In this document: in pieces, positions 1 through 13,148 of the stretch
How the letters are laid out: every line of letters begins with the position of its first letter
Numbering within the stretch: position 1 is the stretch's first letter
Assembly: GCA_965213685.1 (NCBI GenBank)
Contig: CBDBZY010000064.1
Coordinates: 928,001-992,000 of the forward strand
Direction of reading: 5' to 3'
Source of the DNA: a bacterium
GTDB lineage: Bacteria; UBA8248
Length of the DNA stretch: 64,000 nucleotides
The notes under the pieces: generated by a model
Seen by the model: the letters and a program-made list of their open reading frames with translations, nothing else
Database searches by the model: none
What the model was told of the DNA's origin: nothing
Made by a program: the position numbers and the translations under genes

Positions 1-165
1 CGGTGCCGTGGAGCATGCGCCTTCCGCTGGGATGGCCTGGCCGGTCACGCATGCATATGCCTATAGCGGAACACGTGGCTGTTAGTTGCCAGCATTTGTG
101 GCTGCCTATTGCCTGCAGTTGTGGCTGTCTGCCCGGATTATTTTTCTTCTTGCCGAATATCCTTT

Positions 166-2329
166 ATGGTCGACACTGAGGAGCGTGGTACCGGGACCCC
201 AACCGGCGGCGAGGTGGAAGGAGTACCCGGGACGTCAGGCGGAGTGCTGGGGATGACGCTGTCGCCGGAGCAACTGGCGCTGATCGACGGCATGATCGCC
301 GCCCGCCTCGCTGCCGCGACGGGCCATACCACTGCTCCCGACCCAGCCACCTCCGGGGCAGGAGGAGCGACATCAGCTGCGACCCCTTTTTTTTATAGTG
401 ACAAATTTGTGCCAGTGTGGCACAGCCTACAGGAAATATAGGTACAAGAGCTAATACTAATCCTGAGGCCAAAAAGAAATAGAACAAAAAAAACATACAC
501 AAAGAAAAAGGAAATGTAAAGCAACAACGGAAAGAAATAAGAGGAAAGAAAGGACACAATAATTACTGACTACAGCTGCATTATGAGTCTTTTGAACATT
601 GCTGGGGATGATAGTTCTGTTGTGTCAAAAGGGAGGTCATTCCAGCAGGTGATGGCAGAAGGAAAAAAAGAGTGCTTGAAAGAGTTTGTGTGGTACAGAG
701 GGAGAGTGAGCTGATGTTGATTTGCATGTCTGATGGCATATGGAATATTCCTGGGTTGCAATGGAGACGATGGTAGCAAAATATTACCCTTAACCATATT
801 AAATAATGTGAGCAGTTTCATCTTCTTTCTGACATTGAAACAGCATGAAAAGTGGTCAGAAAGAGACTCATAGTTAGCTCTCCATTGCTTTGACCACACC
901 CTTAAAGCAAACTGGTGAACATTCTTGATGGCTGTTTTGTCTTTGAGCAGGTGGGGACCCCAAACCACACAACCATATTCTAAGTGGGGCATAATCACAG
1001 TTTTGAACAGAACATGTAGAGTATGTACATTACAGTACGCATAGAAGTTTCGAAACAATTTCAGTCAGTTTGCTGGATTTGTTGCACTGTATTTGAATAT
1101 AATGGTTCCATGATAGATCCTCAGAAAAATTTAATCCGAGATATTTATAATGGGAAACTCTTGTAAGTGGTTGGCACTCTCCAGTATATATGTTAGTTGT
1201 AGGAACAGTTGGATGTGACTTCCTGGAGAACAACATGTAACAACTCTTCTGAGAATTCAGAGTGAGGTGATTGTTGGTAACCCAGGTACGATACCTGGTA
1301 AGTTATCATTCGCAGTTACGCTGTAGGCAGCCAGTAATGGCCCGATTGTTTTGTCTCGTTCGCTGTGTTTTTGTCTCGGCTGGCGCCGGGTCCCGGTCTC
1401 CGGGTCCCACCACCAACCGACTGATGGGGTCGTTCATACCCAGTTCTTTGTCTTTGCTTTTCAGGCTCGCTGCCGGTGTTCTCATCAGCGACTCTGCCGT
1501 CCACTGACGGTGGAACGGCTGTGGGGTCTTCTGGCCCCGCCCTCGTGTGGCCGACGGCTGTCTCTTCTGTCCCGAGTGGACCGGCCCCCTCAACAGCCGA
1601 TTTGGCACGCTTGCCGGGGTTCGGCTCTGTTCCCCCGAAGCTCGTGAAGAGAATTGTGGAGGAGTTTGTCGATATCTGGGAGCTCCTCCCTGAGTCATGG
1701 CAGCTAGAGTCCGAAGGCACCTGCTGCCACTCGAAGCGGCTGCGCCGCAGCCTGGTCACGGACATCGGTCTGTGGACCCAATGTTACGCCACGATGGCCG
1801 CGATTCTCTCATCCGCCTATCCCGAGAAGGCCCCCCATCTCTTCGCCTACCTGCGAACGGTCACAAAGGCAAGTCGCACGTTCGAAGGGTCAGCGTGGGC
1901 CTCCTATGATGTAGCCTACCGCCTGCAGGCAGCGAATCGTGGCTCCCTCGACTGGGGTGTTGTCGACCCCGCCTTGTACAATGAGGCCTTCGCTGGCCGG
2001 GCTAAGGTGGTGCCTCGATGTCGGTACTGCCTGGCCGACACACATGGCTCCCAGGAGTGTCTTCACTCGCCACTGGACGGGCCTGGTGGGAGCGTTACCC
2101 CGGTCGATGGCCGTGCTCCGCGCCCACAGCGCACCCGGCCGGGAGTTGCCGGGAAGATCATCTACGTCGGCCGCAATGCCGATACGCCCACCTCTTCTCT
2201 AAGTGCCGACGCCCACACCCACAGGCCGAGTGTGAAGAAGGGCACAGGCAGCAGCTTCCCACCATGCCTCCGGCTTCTCCCCAGTCCGTCCCCCGGGGGC
2301 CCTCGGGAGTTCCTAACCAGACGGCCTAG
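166..2329 (+). pseudogene. gag-like ORF1 of the YR retrotransposon: leader exon (166-384 + 1282-1297, split by a LINE), intron 1298-1464, main exon from 1465
   Basis: Removing the LINE gives GCG ACC CCA GGT ACG ATA CCT G|gtaagt. Acceptor ttgcttttcag|GC restores the frame of ORF 1476-2363. The zinc-knuckle-like C-terminus (CRYAHLFSKCRRPHPQAEC) lies in another frame after a lesion near 2155. Confidence 0.75.
387..1281 (-). mobile_element. 5'-truncated LINE (CR1/L2-like) 3' fragment inserted in gag
   Basis: ORFs 1030-1236 and 570-1058 contain KYLGL..LSWN, PHLEYGCVVW and SFFPSAITCWNDLP. Poly(A) at 387-394; ccc duplication/microhomology at the junctions. Confidence 0.9.
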
Positions 2330-2454
2330 TCTTCTCCCATTCCGGAGAGACTGCCATGGATGACTGCGAGGCCCCCAGAGCCGGAATTATTGTGTTCATT
2401 GTTACCTTGCTATTCTGCTTGTGTTATCAGCTATTGCATCTTGCTCTCCCACAG

Positions 2455-3465
2455 GCGCGTACGCATATACGGGGGACCTAGTAGCATTGAATGGGGAGGG
2501 TCCGGATAACCCCTCGCCGAGCGACCCCGCCCTGCAGCTAATATCATCACCTCTCACTAGTCGACTGCAGCAGTGGCGGGAGAGGCTCTCCCCTCACCCG
2601 GATCAAGTGTTCGTTAACTATGTGCTGGGGGGGCTCGAGCATGGTTTCCGCATTGGCTACCGGGGTGGTATCCGGCTGACCGCGGCAGCGGGTAACCTGC
2701 ATTCAGCGAGGATGCATCCGGAGGTGATTGACAACTATATCTCCGCAAAAGTCAAAGGGGGCAGAATGCTAGGTCCGTTTCGCCCAGGTGCGATCTCGCG
2801 TCTCCACTTGAGTCGCATGGGCGTGATCCCCAAGAGCCACACCCCTGGCCGTTGGCGGCTGATTACTGATCTGTCCCACCCCGAGGAGTAATCAGCCGCC
2901 AACGTTAATGACGGAATCCGACCAGAGCTGTGCTCCCTCAAGTACACCTCCGTCGAGGCTGTCGCGGCGATTGCCTCCCGACTCGGCAGGGGGGCTCTGT
3001 TGGCCAAGCTGGATATAAAGTCGGCCTACCGTCTGATTCCTGTACACCCATGCGACCGGCACCTCCTCGGCATAGAGTGGAGGGGCGCCCACTACGTCGA
3101 CCCGTTCGGCCTTCGTTCGGCCCCTAAAGTATTTACTGCCGTGGCAGACGCTCTACACTGGGCCATTGTACGTGAAGGGGTGCCGATAGTTGACCACTAC
3201 CTCGACGATTTTATTACGCTGGGCCCACCAGACTCTGCGGAATGCCAGTAAAACCTCGACAGAATACTGTCTGTTTGCGCCGACCTGGGTGTTCCCCTAG
3301 CGTTGGCAAAGCTCGAGGGCCCGTCACACCGTCTGACATTTCTTGGCATCGAGCTGGATACGATGGAGGGCGTACTGCGCCTCCCCCAGGATAAGCTGTG
3401 CCGCCTGAGAGGTCTCCTGGCCCAGTGGTTGCAACGTAGAGTGTGCCGCCGTCGTCAGCTCTTCT
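2455..3465 (+). pseudogene. Reverse transcriptase of the YR retrotransposon (two in-frame stops; RNase H region apparently deleted)
   Basis: ORFs 2421-2891, 3000-3251 and 3303-3488 share one frame, with stops at 2889 and 3249. Motifs WRLITDLS and YLDDF. The sequence jumps from RRVCRRRQL directly to the YR N-terminus. Confidence 0.9.
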
Positions 3466-3481
3466 TCGCTACTGTGAGATC

Positions 3482-4725
3482 GGTTTAGCCTAGTCGACGC
3501 GGAGGACTTACCGCTCTGGATTGAACCGTTTTCTGTCTTTTTGTACTGCATACGGGGTACCGACCCCTTTTCCGGTGTCTGAGACCCTCTTATGCTACTT
3601 TGTCGCATCGCTAGCGCGGGACGGCATTGCGCCGGCTACCATAAGAAACTATCTGGCGGCGGTTCGACACGCCCAGATTGTACTAGGTCTCCCTGAGCCT
3701 CGAGAATCCTCTACCTTACCCCGCCTCAGGCTCGTCCAGATTGGGGTGTTAAGGGAGGGCGAGTCATGATTGCGTTCTTCGTCAATTACTCTACCGTCGC
3801 TTTCCCCCTACATTTACCAACGCTAAAACGACAGCAATTATTTGGCGCGGTTGCAAATTCGCTGGGAAAAAATTTACTCCCCTTTGGCGAGCATCCACCT
3901 CTTCACCGGTTGGCGCCACACAGCGCCGCACGTCCAACGGTAGCGGGAAATATGAATTTTTCCCAGCGAATTTGCAACCGCGCCAAAGAATTGCTGTCGT
4001 TTTAGCGTTGGTAAATGTAAGGGGAAAGCGACGGTAGAGTAATTGACGAAGAACGCAATCATGACTCGCCCTCCCTTAAGGGAGCACGCGAGTTCGGGTA
4101 CCGCGGTAGCAACCAGACTCCCTATTACGCCGGTCCTCCTCCGCCTCCTGCGCCCGACGGGGGTGTCGAGAGGTTACGACGAGTGCCTTCGGTGGGCGGC
4201 GGCGTCTCTGTGCTTTTTTGGGTTCTTCCGCGCTGGTGAGATCACAGTCCGACGGTGTCTGCCTTCGATGAGGCAGTCCATCTCTCCTGGGGCGATGTGT
4301 CAGTGAGCGAGGATGGCCGCACCCTGCGAGTGTTCCTGAAGCGCACCAAAACTGACCAGCTAATGAGAGGTACCGAGGTCTACGTCGGCACTACCGCGAA
4401 CGACCTCTGCCCGGTCACGGCCATTCGAGATTACGTTGCCCGCAGGGGCGTGTCCCCTGGAGCTTTCTTTCGCCTCGCAGACGGAACCCCGCTGACGAAC
4501 GTGGAGCTGGTCCGGCAGGCGTTATCCCGAGCTGGCGTCTCAACCAGCGGCTACTCGGGCCACAGCTTCCGTATCGGAGCTGCTACGGCGGCGTTTCAGG
4601 CCGGGGTTCCAGACTCAGTCATCCAAGCCCTTGAACGCTGGGCCAGCCCCGCCTTTCTACGCTATATTCGAACCCCGCGGGGGCACCTGGCGCAGTACTC
4701 GTACGCCTTGGTGCCAAGGAACTGA
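3482..4725 (+). pseudogene. Tyrosine recombinase of the YR retrotransposon
   Basis: GLA*STRRTYRSGLNRFLSFC N-terminus and R-HxxR-W-Y catalytic residues. Stop at 3491, MITE at 3753-4075 (removal restores GVLREHA), frameshift near 4250. Confidence 0.9.
3753..4075. mobile_element. Kolobok-like non-autonomous element, palindromic derivative
   Basis: TTAA on both sides (3749-3752, 4076-4079); termini GGGAGGGCGAGTCATG...CATGACTCGCCCTCCC; same family at 39678 and 52004. Confidence 0.8.
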
Positions 4726-4985
4726 ACTCGTCTTCTTATGTGCTGTTGTTGTTGTTGGTTGTTGTTGTGAGATATATACTGTAATAGTCACGCCTCGAAG
4801 GCCGTAGACGCATGACTCTGCGCTATTAGGGTGTCTTGGGGGGGTGAACCCCTCCCACTCCTTGGGCAGGGGCGGAGCCTCACGCCGGGAAGGCTCCACC
4901 CACCTGGGGGGAATACCCCCGTTGACACGCCGACCATAGATATTTACCTTAGGTACGGGATTGGAAGCATGAGATTAACCCGAAA

Positions 4986-5672
4986 CACTCCTCGTTGTTC
5001 ACGGAAGTGATAAATGGGGTAGCCGGTATATAGGAAACAGGGAAGAAGACAGATTTGTCTTGGTTTTCTCCGTTTACTGGTTTTAGCTTCGAGACAAGAC
5101 TAGACAAGACAACGGTATATGTGGGCTATCACGGACACGTGCGGTGCGCGAGGGGAGGAGGTACTTTTGTGTACCTGCTGCGTCCTCGGAGAGACAGCTA
5201 TGGCCAAGCATTCTCGCTTTATACGTTCGACAATGTCAACTATGTGTCGTGGTGCATAGTACACGGGGCGTCTGTCATCATGTTGAGTGCAAACACTGAT
5301 ATAGCTCTCCTCTAGCACGAACTGTCAACACTCATGTACTCCAACATGAAGACAGAGGCCCCACGCACAGTACACCACGACACATAGTTGACATTGTCGA
5401 ACGTGTAAAGCGAAAAAGCTTGGCCATAGCTATCTCTCCGAGGACGCAGCAGGTACACAAAGGTACCTCCTCCCCTCGCGCACCACACGTGTCCGTGATA
5501 GACGACGCATGTTGTTAAGCCTAAGGCCTATGTCCGTTCCCTCACTTGTTGAAGTATAACAATAGTCTTGTCTCGAAGTTGGAAGCAGTAAACCAAACGA
5601 AATCACCAGTTTCCCTCTTCTTTCCTAACCGATGCTTAAAACATTCCACTTCCGGGAACAACTAGGAGTGTG
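4986..5672. repeat. ~690-bp imperfect foldback (MITE-like) element
   Basis: Ends ACACTCCTcGTTGTTCaCGGAAGTG / CACTTCCGgGAACAACtAGGAGTGT; arm ~5125-5285 is the reverse complement of ~5343-5502. Confidence 0.8.
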
Positions 5673-6771
5673 TCAGGCGATAATGTACAGAGTGAACGGG
5701 CGCACGTGATCTGCTATGCGCCGACTGCCATAACGCAGCCCAGTCCTCTGGCCATACCCAAATGGCCCCCAATCGCTGGGTCCATGACATACGATGGGAA
5801 TGGTGGTTAGAGGGTGGGACTGGGCTATCTAGAGGAAGGTAGGTTAACTTAATACAAATTTTGCTGCACCACTTATTTTTACAAACCACAGGCCCAGAGG
5901 CCGAGGAGGGCCGACAGCGTCACGTGAGTCCCGCGAAATTGCTTGCCCATAGAAACACGGTTTCCTGGTGTGTCCATACTGCTTGAGGTACAAGCCTGGG
6001 TTTTATACTGCAGAAGTGCTATGAGGTGCGAAGACGATTGAGGCCTGGAACCCCGCGGAACCTCACCGGCGACGCAGGAGCCGAGTCAGTATGTGTTCTA
6101 CCTGGCCCACGCCCACACAGGTGCCTGCATCCACGGACAGGCGACCATGACGCTATCAAGGAACCCCCACGAGACCATAGCCATCTCTGCTTCTAGGAGC
6201 TTACGCACGCTGTCTTCACCCTTGTAGTCAGTGCCTCGTAACCAGGGCCCCTCCCACAATGGGAGGGGCCTGGGCGTGAGGAATTCATTATTGTACGTTA
6301 CGTCACTTCCTGTCGGACTCGCCGGCGCCACAGGCCGTCACACCTTTAGAGCAGTTGGGAACGGAATCAGGACAGTGGGCAGCGCCAATGGCTGTCATGT
6401 ATGTGCATATGGTGCATAGTAACCAAGTTTGCGTAAAACAATTGGGTTGACCTAGCACAGTGCGAGTGAGAGACTGCATCCACCATCCATGATTGCTATC
6501 AATGGTGAGTGTGTAAGACAGAGAGTTAGCACCAGAACTACGACATGCTGTACATAAACCATAGATAAGGGAGCTTTGAATTCCTATGCATAAACACCGT
6601 AGCTGCAGGTAGATTCTATATAAAACAGTAGCACTGTGACTGTCGTAGCTATTCATAATGTAGCGTAGTTGTACATTATCTTTACCCTCTACCGGCAATG
6701 GAACGCCAGCAGATCGTGCTCATCCTTGAGCTAGTAGCTACCACCTGTGTTGACCACTCACCGTGACAATC

Positions 6772-13148
<6,377 letters not shown>

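Follow-up and report, generated by a model that had tools for sequence, protein, structure and literature searches.

The DNA analyzed here, a stretch of 64,000 nt referred to below as the window (G000:C64:928001-992000, where G000 is the assembly GCA_965213685.1 and C64 its contig CBDBZY010000064.1), carries at its left end a dead copy of a sponge retrotransposon of the DIRS order, which encodes a tyrosine recombinase (YR) and has the layout gag - reverse transcriptase/RNase H (RT/RH) - YR without a methyltransferase domain. On balance, this element appears to express gag and RT/RH from one shared leader by means of alternative phase-1 splice acceptors. Splicing of the leader to gag is well supported, and alternative splicing of the same leader to RT/RH is plausible, judging from the arrangement of frames and signals. 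According to the proposed mechanism, translation would start in a 5' leader exon of ~60-77 codons (an acidic start followed by a helix-like F/L-S/T-P-E-Q-L-x-L-I-D segment) ending in a phase-1 GT donor, and gag and RT/RH, both without a start codon of their own, would each follow directly after a polypyrimidine-YAG phase-1 acceptor. Joining of the donor to acceptor 1 (1297>1465) would give a leader-Gag mRNA, joining to acceptor 2 (1297>2455) with skipping of gag would give a leader-RT/RH mRNA, the choice of acceptor would set the Gag:Pol ratio, and the unspliced RNA would be the template that is copied. We infer translation from ATG 166, the use of acceptor 2 with the leader donor and the control of the ratio.

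In the window, the leader exon is encoded on the + strand in two parts, 166..388 (starting with ATG 166 and encoding MVDTEE...LSPEQLALIDGMIAARLAAA...) and the final 9 nt, 1289..1297 (CGATACCTG), on either side of a 5'-truncated insertion resembling a long interspersed nuclear element (LINE; 389..1288, - strand, with its poly(A) end at 389 visible as a T run on the + strand). Without the insertion the leader comprises 223+9 = 232 nt and ends in phase 1, as the original prediction had it, a length that rests on LINE-less contigs and not on the window copy itself. The donor is TACCTG|gtaagt with the exon end at 1297 (context after the LINE, CGATACCTG|gtaagt). It opens intron 1 (1298..1464, + strand, 167 nt; gtaagt at 1298-1303, polypyrimidine tract and cag at 1447-1464), and the unspliced frame past the donor reads PGKLSFAVTL*, i.e., 10 codons up to TAG 1324-1326. 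The first acceptor, tttgtctttgcttttcag|GC, begins the gag exon (1465..2329, + strand) in the gag frame, with full codons from 1467 and an upstream in-frame stop at 1422. This exon encodes an SLPVFS motif, a conserved core, a CCHC knuckle and a second knuckle; its frame is broken at ~2100-2150, and the second zinc knuckle and the true stop (TAG ending at 2329) sit in another frame. A spacer of 125 nt (2330..2454, + strand) ending in ttgctctcccacag separates gag from the RT exon (2455..3470, + strand), which starts with (G)AYAYTGDL directly after the second acceptor, catcttgctctcccacag|GC, in the RT frame and with an upstream in-frame stop at 2361. The RT exon contains stops at 2889-2891 and 3249-3251 and ends at ~3470, truncated before RNase H.

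The ATG, the phase-1 donor CCTG|gtaagt at 1298, the TAG at 1324 and the acceptors ending at 1464 and 2454 thus all lie where the original prediction had placed them, and its statement that neither downstream open reading frame (ORF) has an early ATG holds as well, the first in-frame ATG being found 329 nt inside gag and 257 nt inside RT. By contrast, the alternative donor that it proposed at 1286 is LINE sequence (389-1288) and not part of the element. Phase 1 is common to the donor and the two acceptors, and as the latter are both cag|GC, each junction codon would be GGC; the better-preserved copies also read cag|GC at their acceptors. Before RT, the element's own sequence contains no GT[AG]AG other than the leader donor.

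Contigs of four runs were aligned to positions 1-5000 of the window at 85% likeness, and two contigs of run X8, a sponge metagenome labelled 'DNA?', bear on the leader. In the first (depth 89), 388 is joined to 1289; it is LINE-less and has the intron. The second (depth 20, 89 nt on the shorter side) reads 388 + CGATGCCT + 1464 and is without the LINE and without exactly the 167-nt GT..AG intron. Because 1464 is G and the exon also ends in G, this contig is read as the 1297>1465 junction; indeed, with a 1293 A>G variant it reads exactly CGATGCCTG|GCTCG. The exact loss of a GT...AG segment is a splicing signature in either case, be the contig a cDNA or a retrocopy of a spliced RNA in the genome. 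The 1293 A>G variant is present in runs X1, X5 and X8, and its G yields ATG CCT G|gt, with an in-frame ATG that precedes the donor by two codons. In two of the related copies described below, c1168 and L006, a short ATG frame also ends in phase 1 at the donor, and the true start codon could be such a late ATG rather than ATG 166.

Related copies were sought in the assembly itself and in public contigs. A combination of tblastn and profile searches revealed seven further DIRS-like fragments in G000 (c850, c1168, c1184, c1189, c1205, c1569 and c56) with 27-57% protein identity (27-50% for the copies used in the acceptor test). A single gag protein as the query gave no match in genome contigs or metagenome contigs; a profile of alignment A1 (26 gag homologues and the window) found eight distant loci in metagenome contigs and no match in genome contigs or viral contigs. 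In these copies we looked for a strict acceptor, defined as YAG preceded by at least nine pyrimidines in 12 nt, no more than 61 nt upstream of the conserved motif that begins each protein. Upstream of the gag motif LP.F[ST] it is present in 6 of 8 copies (two of which, L002 and L005, are near-identical), and upstream of the RT motif Y.Y..DL in 5 of 6, the miss being c1184. All 11 matches are in phase 1 and none in the other phases; the background frequency of strict sites (294 in 105,476 nt and 4,445 in 1,635,321 nt) gives ~0.055 phase-1 matches expected per site. The two copies missed upstream of gag have weaker phase-1 sites visible by eye, gcatctgcag|GC followed by TLPLFPSS in c1184 and gttatag|GC in L006. 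The donor is likewise recognizable in the relatives: CCTG|gtaagt of the window corresponds to CCAG|gtaaga in c1168, GCCG|gtgagt in c1205, GGAG|gtatgc in L006 and CCAG|gtacgt in c1184, where it is in phase 1 with an open frame of 59 codons; the product initiated at the Met of this frame begins MVDSE, a start (MVD[ST]E) common to c1184 and the window (MVDTE). The conservation of a phase-1 GT donor and of both acceptors in family copies, which the original prediction had proposed to test, is borne out, all strict acceptors being in phase 1.

The same boundary can be seen in predicted proteins. A protein search with gag returned 702 candidates, of which 123 qualified as homologues at E<=0.001; these derive from ENA, Logan, JGI and NCBI contigs. 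In alignment A1, conservation begins abruptly at LP[VI]F[ST], and the sequence upstream is unrelated. When the 26 homologues of this alignment and 10 longer ones were checked for a footprint of the acceptor, 21 of the 36 had the LP.F motif upstream of the core, and 19 of these 21 had the residues X-G no more than 14 residues before the motif, preceded by stretches rich in Leu, Ser, Pro, Cys and Phe (e.g., LLAG|, LLTG|, PPPG|). This footprint is what yyy-cag|G in phase 1 would be expected to encode when a gene caller reads through it. RT homologues have an X-G at the same place (CIAG|TYIYTRDL, FSAG|SYPHIRDL, VPAG|GYPYIRDL and SHAG|SYLYMRDL).

Furthermore, the leader is present in three of the 10 longer gag proteins (P0123, P0126 and P0127; e.g., MSTDPG...FTPEQLVLIDRLIAARVA). 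It is followed by 'IG|EC' in P0123 and 'PG|EA' in P0126, which imply a G|GTGAG donor in phase 1, then by an unconserved stretch and then by LLAG|SAASLPLF or SIAG|PLPTF. As P0123 and P0126 keep the leader and the implied phase-1 donor in front of the unconserved stretch, the leader is supported as a coding segment that is conserved together with a phase-1 donor. The leader motif [FL][ST][PA]EQ.. occurs in P0123, P0126, L006, c1168 and c1205, and the peptides align around [FL][ST][PA][EQ]Q. The intron is kept in genomic copies: the acceptor region is read through in every copy of the same genome and in each of the 36 gag homologues checked. Such retention follows if the unspliced RNA is the copied template, and it agrees with the role that the original prediction gave to that RNA.

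How RT is expressed has to be judged from the order of frames and stops. RT is unreachable by a frameshift from gag, because the RT-frame stop at 2361 is downstream of the gag stop at 2329. There is no in-frame ATG between the upstream stop and the conserved start of RT in the window, c1168, c1569 or c1205. A splice from gag to RT was considered and dropped: the 700 nt that precede the RT acceptor in the window contain no GT[AG]AG or similar donor, and in c1168, c1205, c1569 and c1184 there is no conserved donor around the end of gag. With a frameshift excluded, no in-frame ATG, no nearer donor and phase 1 shared, RT probably uses the leader donor.

Several observations weigh against this explanation. 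Support for the junction consists of one contig of one run, aligned at 85% likeness, which may be a DNA retrocopy, as none of the 16 runs with the stretch is listed as RNA. Of the two junctions put forward in the original prediction, 1297>1465 was recovered in this contig, and 1297>2455 is not among the 15 listed of 28 joints; nor is there a leader-RT fusion among 18 longer RT homologues. The leader gave two matches in a phmmer search of 1.84 billion representatives, namely the window's own locus (P0121) and a 5,291-aa protein; the latter match, in seven stretches, was regarded as low-complexity and set aside. The ~3.6 kb of the element contain nine strict acceptors, which matches the 0.0027 per nt measured for the host contig; within the window copy alone their number does not exceed chance, and their significance comes solely from conservation across copies. 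For that conservation, the anchors of the acceptor test were picked after inspection and the copies are related, which makes the small probability only indicative. The RT acceptor of c1184 is weak and outside phase 1, and the long leader frames of c1168 and c1205 are out of phase with their donors, phase 1 being found only for short ATG frames (MGSQRTPQP; MTPPTM...), a mismatch that decay or a different start codon could explain. Finally, a continuous leader-gag frame, which the original prediction had listed among its refuting observations, does occur in part of the family. The P0123 cluster is a young subfamily (14 members with >=90% identity on different contigs), at least nine members of which keep the intron and have leader, intron and gag in one open frame of ~420 aa; in P0126 the frame is likewise open through the intron. 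In these cases an unspliced leader-X-Gag protein, i.e., an intron-retaining long Gag isoform, is possible. Between P0123 and P0126, the stretch encoded by the intron is unrelated, whereas the leader and gag parts are conserved.

One alternative is that there is no splicing at all: the motifs would be products of chance or by-products of coding, Gag would be read through the 'intron' or initiated at a non-AUG codon, and the intron-less contig would be a deletion or an assembly artefact. The abundance of strict acceptors in the window copy, the open frames of the P0123 cluster and P0126 and the single junction contig speak for this, but a chance deletion of exactly GT...AG, 167 nt long, in a copy that is also without the LINE is unlikely, the place and phase of the sites are conserved down to 27% protein identity, the intron-encoded stretches lack the conservation of their flanks, and read-through in the window halts after 10 codons; we regard it as improbable. 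A more serious competitor, still less probable than the shared leader with two acceptors, holds that only intron 1 is real, spliced constitutively or optionally, and that RT/RH is produced by reinitiation, by non-AUG or internal initiation or by a mechanism that only intact copies would reveal, with the pyrimidine-AG string in front of RT having some other function or being a relic. This would account for leader>gag being the sole junction-bearing molecule, for the 0 of 18 leader-RT fusions and for c1184, which has no phase-1 RT acceptor and whose gag and RT share a frame with two stops between them. It does not account for the strict phase-1 acceptors that 5 of 6 diverged copies have no further than 61 nt from the RT motif, against ~0.055 expected, or for the X-G footprint at the same place in RT homologues; the missing ATG between the upstream stop and the RT motif (window, c1168, c1569, c1205) and the order of stops in the window, which rules out a frameshift from gag, also speak against it. 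It is also conceivable that the acceptors serve a trans-spliced leader or a donor in a host transcript, the ORFs being exons of other RNAs. Both ORFs are ATG-less and start at acceptors, and Abascal et al. 2015 (PMC4495291) inferred that two mammalian genes acquired an exon that derives from DIRS gag and carried its own splice acceptor. However, in the X8 contig gag is connected in cis to the leader of the element itself, the donor and the two acceptors have the same phase, 1, as the ATG frame of the leader, and the leader peptide is conserved along with the element, which leaves very little room for a foreign donor. One leader with alternative phase-1 acceptors for gag and RT/RH remains the explanation that we favor.

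The downstream part of the element determines its classification. RVT_1 scores 17.8 bits (E=0.0029) in the window, under the cut-off of 29.6, and exceeds the cut-off in relatives (P0147, 46.4 bits; P0133, 35.6 bits), so an RT domain is present. A Pfam scan at E<=0.01 gave no family for gag and none for the leader. RNase H is deleted in the window; in relatives, a candidate RNase H stretch, SDASG.WG.GA...CDN, is visible by eye. The tyrosine recombinase remnant lies at 3494..4725 (+ strand; segments 3494-3748 and 4080-4725) and has lost its start, together with the RNase H region upstream. It matches Phage_integrase at E=6.3e-5 with 23.3 bits (cut-off 27.1) and Phage_int_SAM_1 at E=4e-4 with 21.1 bits (cut-off 22.3), significantly but under the Pfam cut-offs, and its translation shows HSFRIGAAT and a C-terminal RYI, i.e., a tyrosine recombinase is present instead of a DDE integrase. 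By tblastn, four other copies have homologous YR segments after RT. A methyltransferase-like domain between RNase H and YR defines the DIRS1-like or PAT-like sub-groups. In the relatives, 12 RT/RH ORFs of 535-626 aa end right after RNase H and leave no room for such a domain, and Pfam, run on two of them, gave RVT_1 only; the domain therefore appears to be absent; in c1184, YR starts within ~150 nt after the RNase H stretch. Direct or inverted terminal repeats were found neither around the window copy nor in five other decayed copies. The element belongs to the DIRS order and has an Ngaro-like gene order.

The junction of RT/RH and YR has features of its own. The RT/RH ORFs (P0133-P0148; c56, c1184, c1189) end 10-25 codons past a conserved WTSPSW, with Val-stop as the end of 5 of the 12 proteins examined, and one base earlier the same DNA encodes the conserved YR start LDI[ST]QL, so that YR overlaps RT/RH in the -1 frame. 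Within the 3' end of RNase H, at an FLS..PQ motif, a candidate third acceptor (...cccacag|GC or ...ccttcag|GC) can be recognized 65 nt upstream of the YR motif LDI[ST][QK]L. In c56 (G000:C56:70000-77500, local position ~5488) and c1189 (C64:1187000-1193500, local position 4713) its phase relative to the overlapping YR frame is 1; in c1184 (C64:1181000-1188800, reverse, local position 5965) the site is 64 nt upstream and in phase 2, and c1569 differs. An acceptor before YR, for which the original prediction had looked to other family copies, is thus found as a phase-1 candidate in two of these copies and not in the other two; it may serve as a leader>YR acceptor or be no more than coding sequence. 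A broader proposal, which we consider doubtful, is that this sponge YR lineage has a retrovirus-like sub-genomic mRNA program of independent origin, with one start codon and donor and two or three phase-1 acceptors. In such a program Gag, RT/RH and possibly the recombinase would each be fused to the same N-terminal peptide of ~60-77 residues, and this common leader peptide could bring separately made enzymes to Gag, replacing a Gag-Pol fusion.

The window is sponge host DNA that was binned with a bacterium. Assembly G000 (71 contigs, 8.0 Mb) is a mixture of contigs with ~65% GC and contigs with 43-53% GC, contig C64 (1.64 Mb) has 44% GC, the 16 runs containing the window stretch are labelled as sponge metagenome or with a coded organism, and a palindromic miniature inverted-repeat transposable element (MITE) of the window recurs on contigs C16, C18, C41, C56 and C64; our reading of the window as sponge DNA follows from the GC mixture, the labels of the runs and the recurrence of the MITE on five contigs. 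Among 44 genomes of the bacterium's order, G000 itself was the only match. At least five sponge contigs with the MITE (C16, C18, C41, C56 and C64, ~3.7 Mb summed) are present in this bacterial bin, whose bacterial contigs have ~65% GC.

The decay of the window copy is evident from the LINE (389-1288), the MITE (3749-4079), the gag frameshift, the two RT stops and the deleted RNase H region. The 5' untranslated part of the element (1..165, + strand) has an undefined left boundary and a GC content of 0.56 vs ~0.44 for the host contig; the GC content is 0.70 in the leader, 0.64 in gag, 0.54 in intron 1 and 0.50 in the gag-RT spacer, and its fall in these last two segments speaks for the proposed splicing. 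The bin of positions 1..165 has a depth of 431 in run X8 vs 9-12 in X1 and X5, and the 5' part is therefore multi-copy in that sponge. Window positions 387-1289, which span the LINE-like insertion, match C64:1411285-1412192 at 89.6%; the likeness ends at 1289-1294 and the other copy continues. No Pfam family was found in the ORF fragments of the insertion. The MITE (3749..4079, without strand, arms of 123 nt, 98% complementary) lies inside the YR gene and occurs at 46 further places across five contigs of G000; a contig of X8 joins 3748 to 4078. Its summed word depth in run X5 is ~94,000, compared with 10-30 for the flanks. Contigs of runs X1 and X5 skip 2880-2927 (a feature at 2879-2928), and in contigs of all four compared runs 3396 is joined to 4331 with unidentified sequence between; therefore, at least one paralogous copy with ~88% identity exists in those sponges. 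Elsewhere on the contig, at least five decayed DIRS-like fragments are clustered on both strands within ~45 kb (C64:1166500-1210500). Further along the window, a second palindromic element at 5072-5593 (arms 5121-5285 and 5342-5506, 165 nt, 90%) is flanked by 31-nt inverted repeats (5072-5102 and 5563-5593) and is the sole copy in G000, and at 6917-7210 a block of ~65 nt is duplicated, with long (CT)n and (CCCT)n microsatellites after it.

The proposed expression has parallels in several retroelements. In foamy viruses, Pol is made from its own spliced mRNA, which joins a donor in the 5' leader to an acceptor within gag. This is the same logic as that of donor>acceptor 2 in the sponge element and makes these viruses a functional analogue. 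Foamy viruses (Spumaretrovirinae) produce Pol as a separate precursor instead of fusing it to Gag, as stated in PMC3196705. However, in foamy viruses Gag is translated from the unspliced RNA and both Gag and Pol start at an AUG of their own, whereas gag and RT of the sponge element are AUG-less and would be fused to the leader; moreover, the sponge element has a tyrosine recombinase and no long terminal repeats (LTRs) were seen, whereas foamy viruses have an integrase. A start codon shared by splicing is known from the env mRNA of avian leukosis/sarcoma virus, in which the 5' donor follows the start of the first ORF by a few codons and the product shares the AUG and the first residues of Gag. 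The shared part is six codons in this virus, which has LTRs and an integrase, vs ~77 in the sponge element. Drosophila copia makes a spliced sub-genomic gag RNA. In Ty1/copia LTR elements, a spliced sub-genomic gag RNA tunes Gag vs Pol and the unspliced RNA is copied, according to papers on Arabidopsis (PMC5580714) and barley BARE (PMC3735527). The intron removes pol in the elements described there and Gag is over-produced from a single ORF, whereas the introns of the sponge element lie before each ORF and would supply the start codon.

Penelope-like elements, which belong to a different RT clade and have a GIY-YIG endonuclease, retain a spliceosomal intron in their genomic copies. Genomic copies keep an intron in both these and the sponge element, and we know of no Penelope-like element with alternative acceptors feeding separate ORFs. 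DIRS1-like, PAT-like and Ngaro elements resemble the sponge element in having a zinc-knuckle gag ORF, RT/RNase H, a tyrosine recombinase and a YR frame that overlaps the end of RT/RH; terminal repeats define the DIRS1, PAT and Ngaro sub-groups and were not found around the sponge copies. Leader exons, introns and ATG-less ORFs are absent from three surveys that treat such elements: neither 'intron' nor 'splic' occurs in the text of PMC3266345 and PMC3783388, which are surveys of YR elements, and PMC4157794 has a generic mention only. Introns appear in PMC7192593 only as an engineered marker, and PMC5890265 has only 'intronless' for retrotransposon genes. No description of spliced DIRS/Ngaro expression was found in the literature searched, a scope outside which Goodwin and Poulter 2004, Repbase notes and supplements lie and could hold one.

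A link to host genes is suggested by the LAP2alpha and ZNF451 exons, which derive from DIRS gag and, in PMC4495291, are inferred to have brought their own splice acceptor. A conserved acceptor directly before gag in the sponge element fits this reading. However, LAP2alpha and ZNF451 are domesticated mammalian exons, and Pfam gave no LAP2alpha match for the sponge gag at E<=0.01.

A conserved leader with alternative acceptors would, if true, provide a defined expression strategy for DIRS-order elements, for which the expression of the ORFs is undescribed in the surveys searched. It would also be an independent case of the retroviral solution in which the unspliced RNA is the genome and the spliced RNAs are the messages, and would explain the unrelated N-termini that automatic gene callers give to gag and RT proteins. 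Furthermore, an acceptor located before gag would give a reason for the easy exonization of DIRS gag by host genes such as LAP2alpha and ZNF451.

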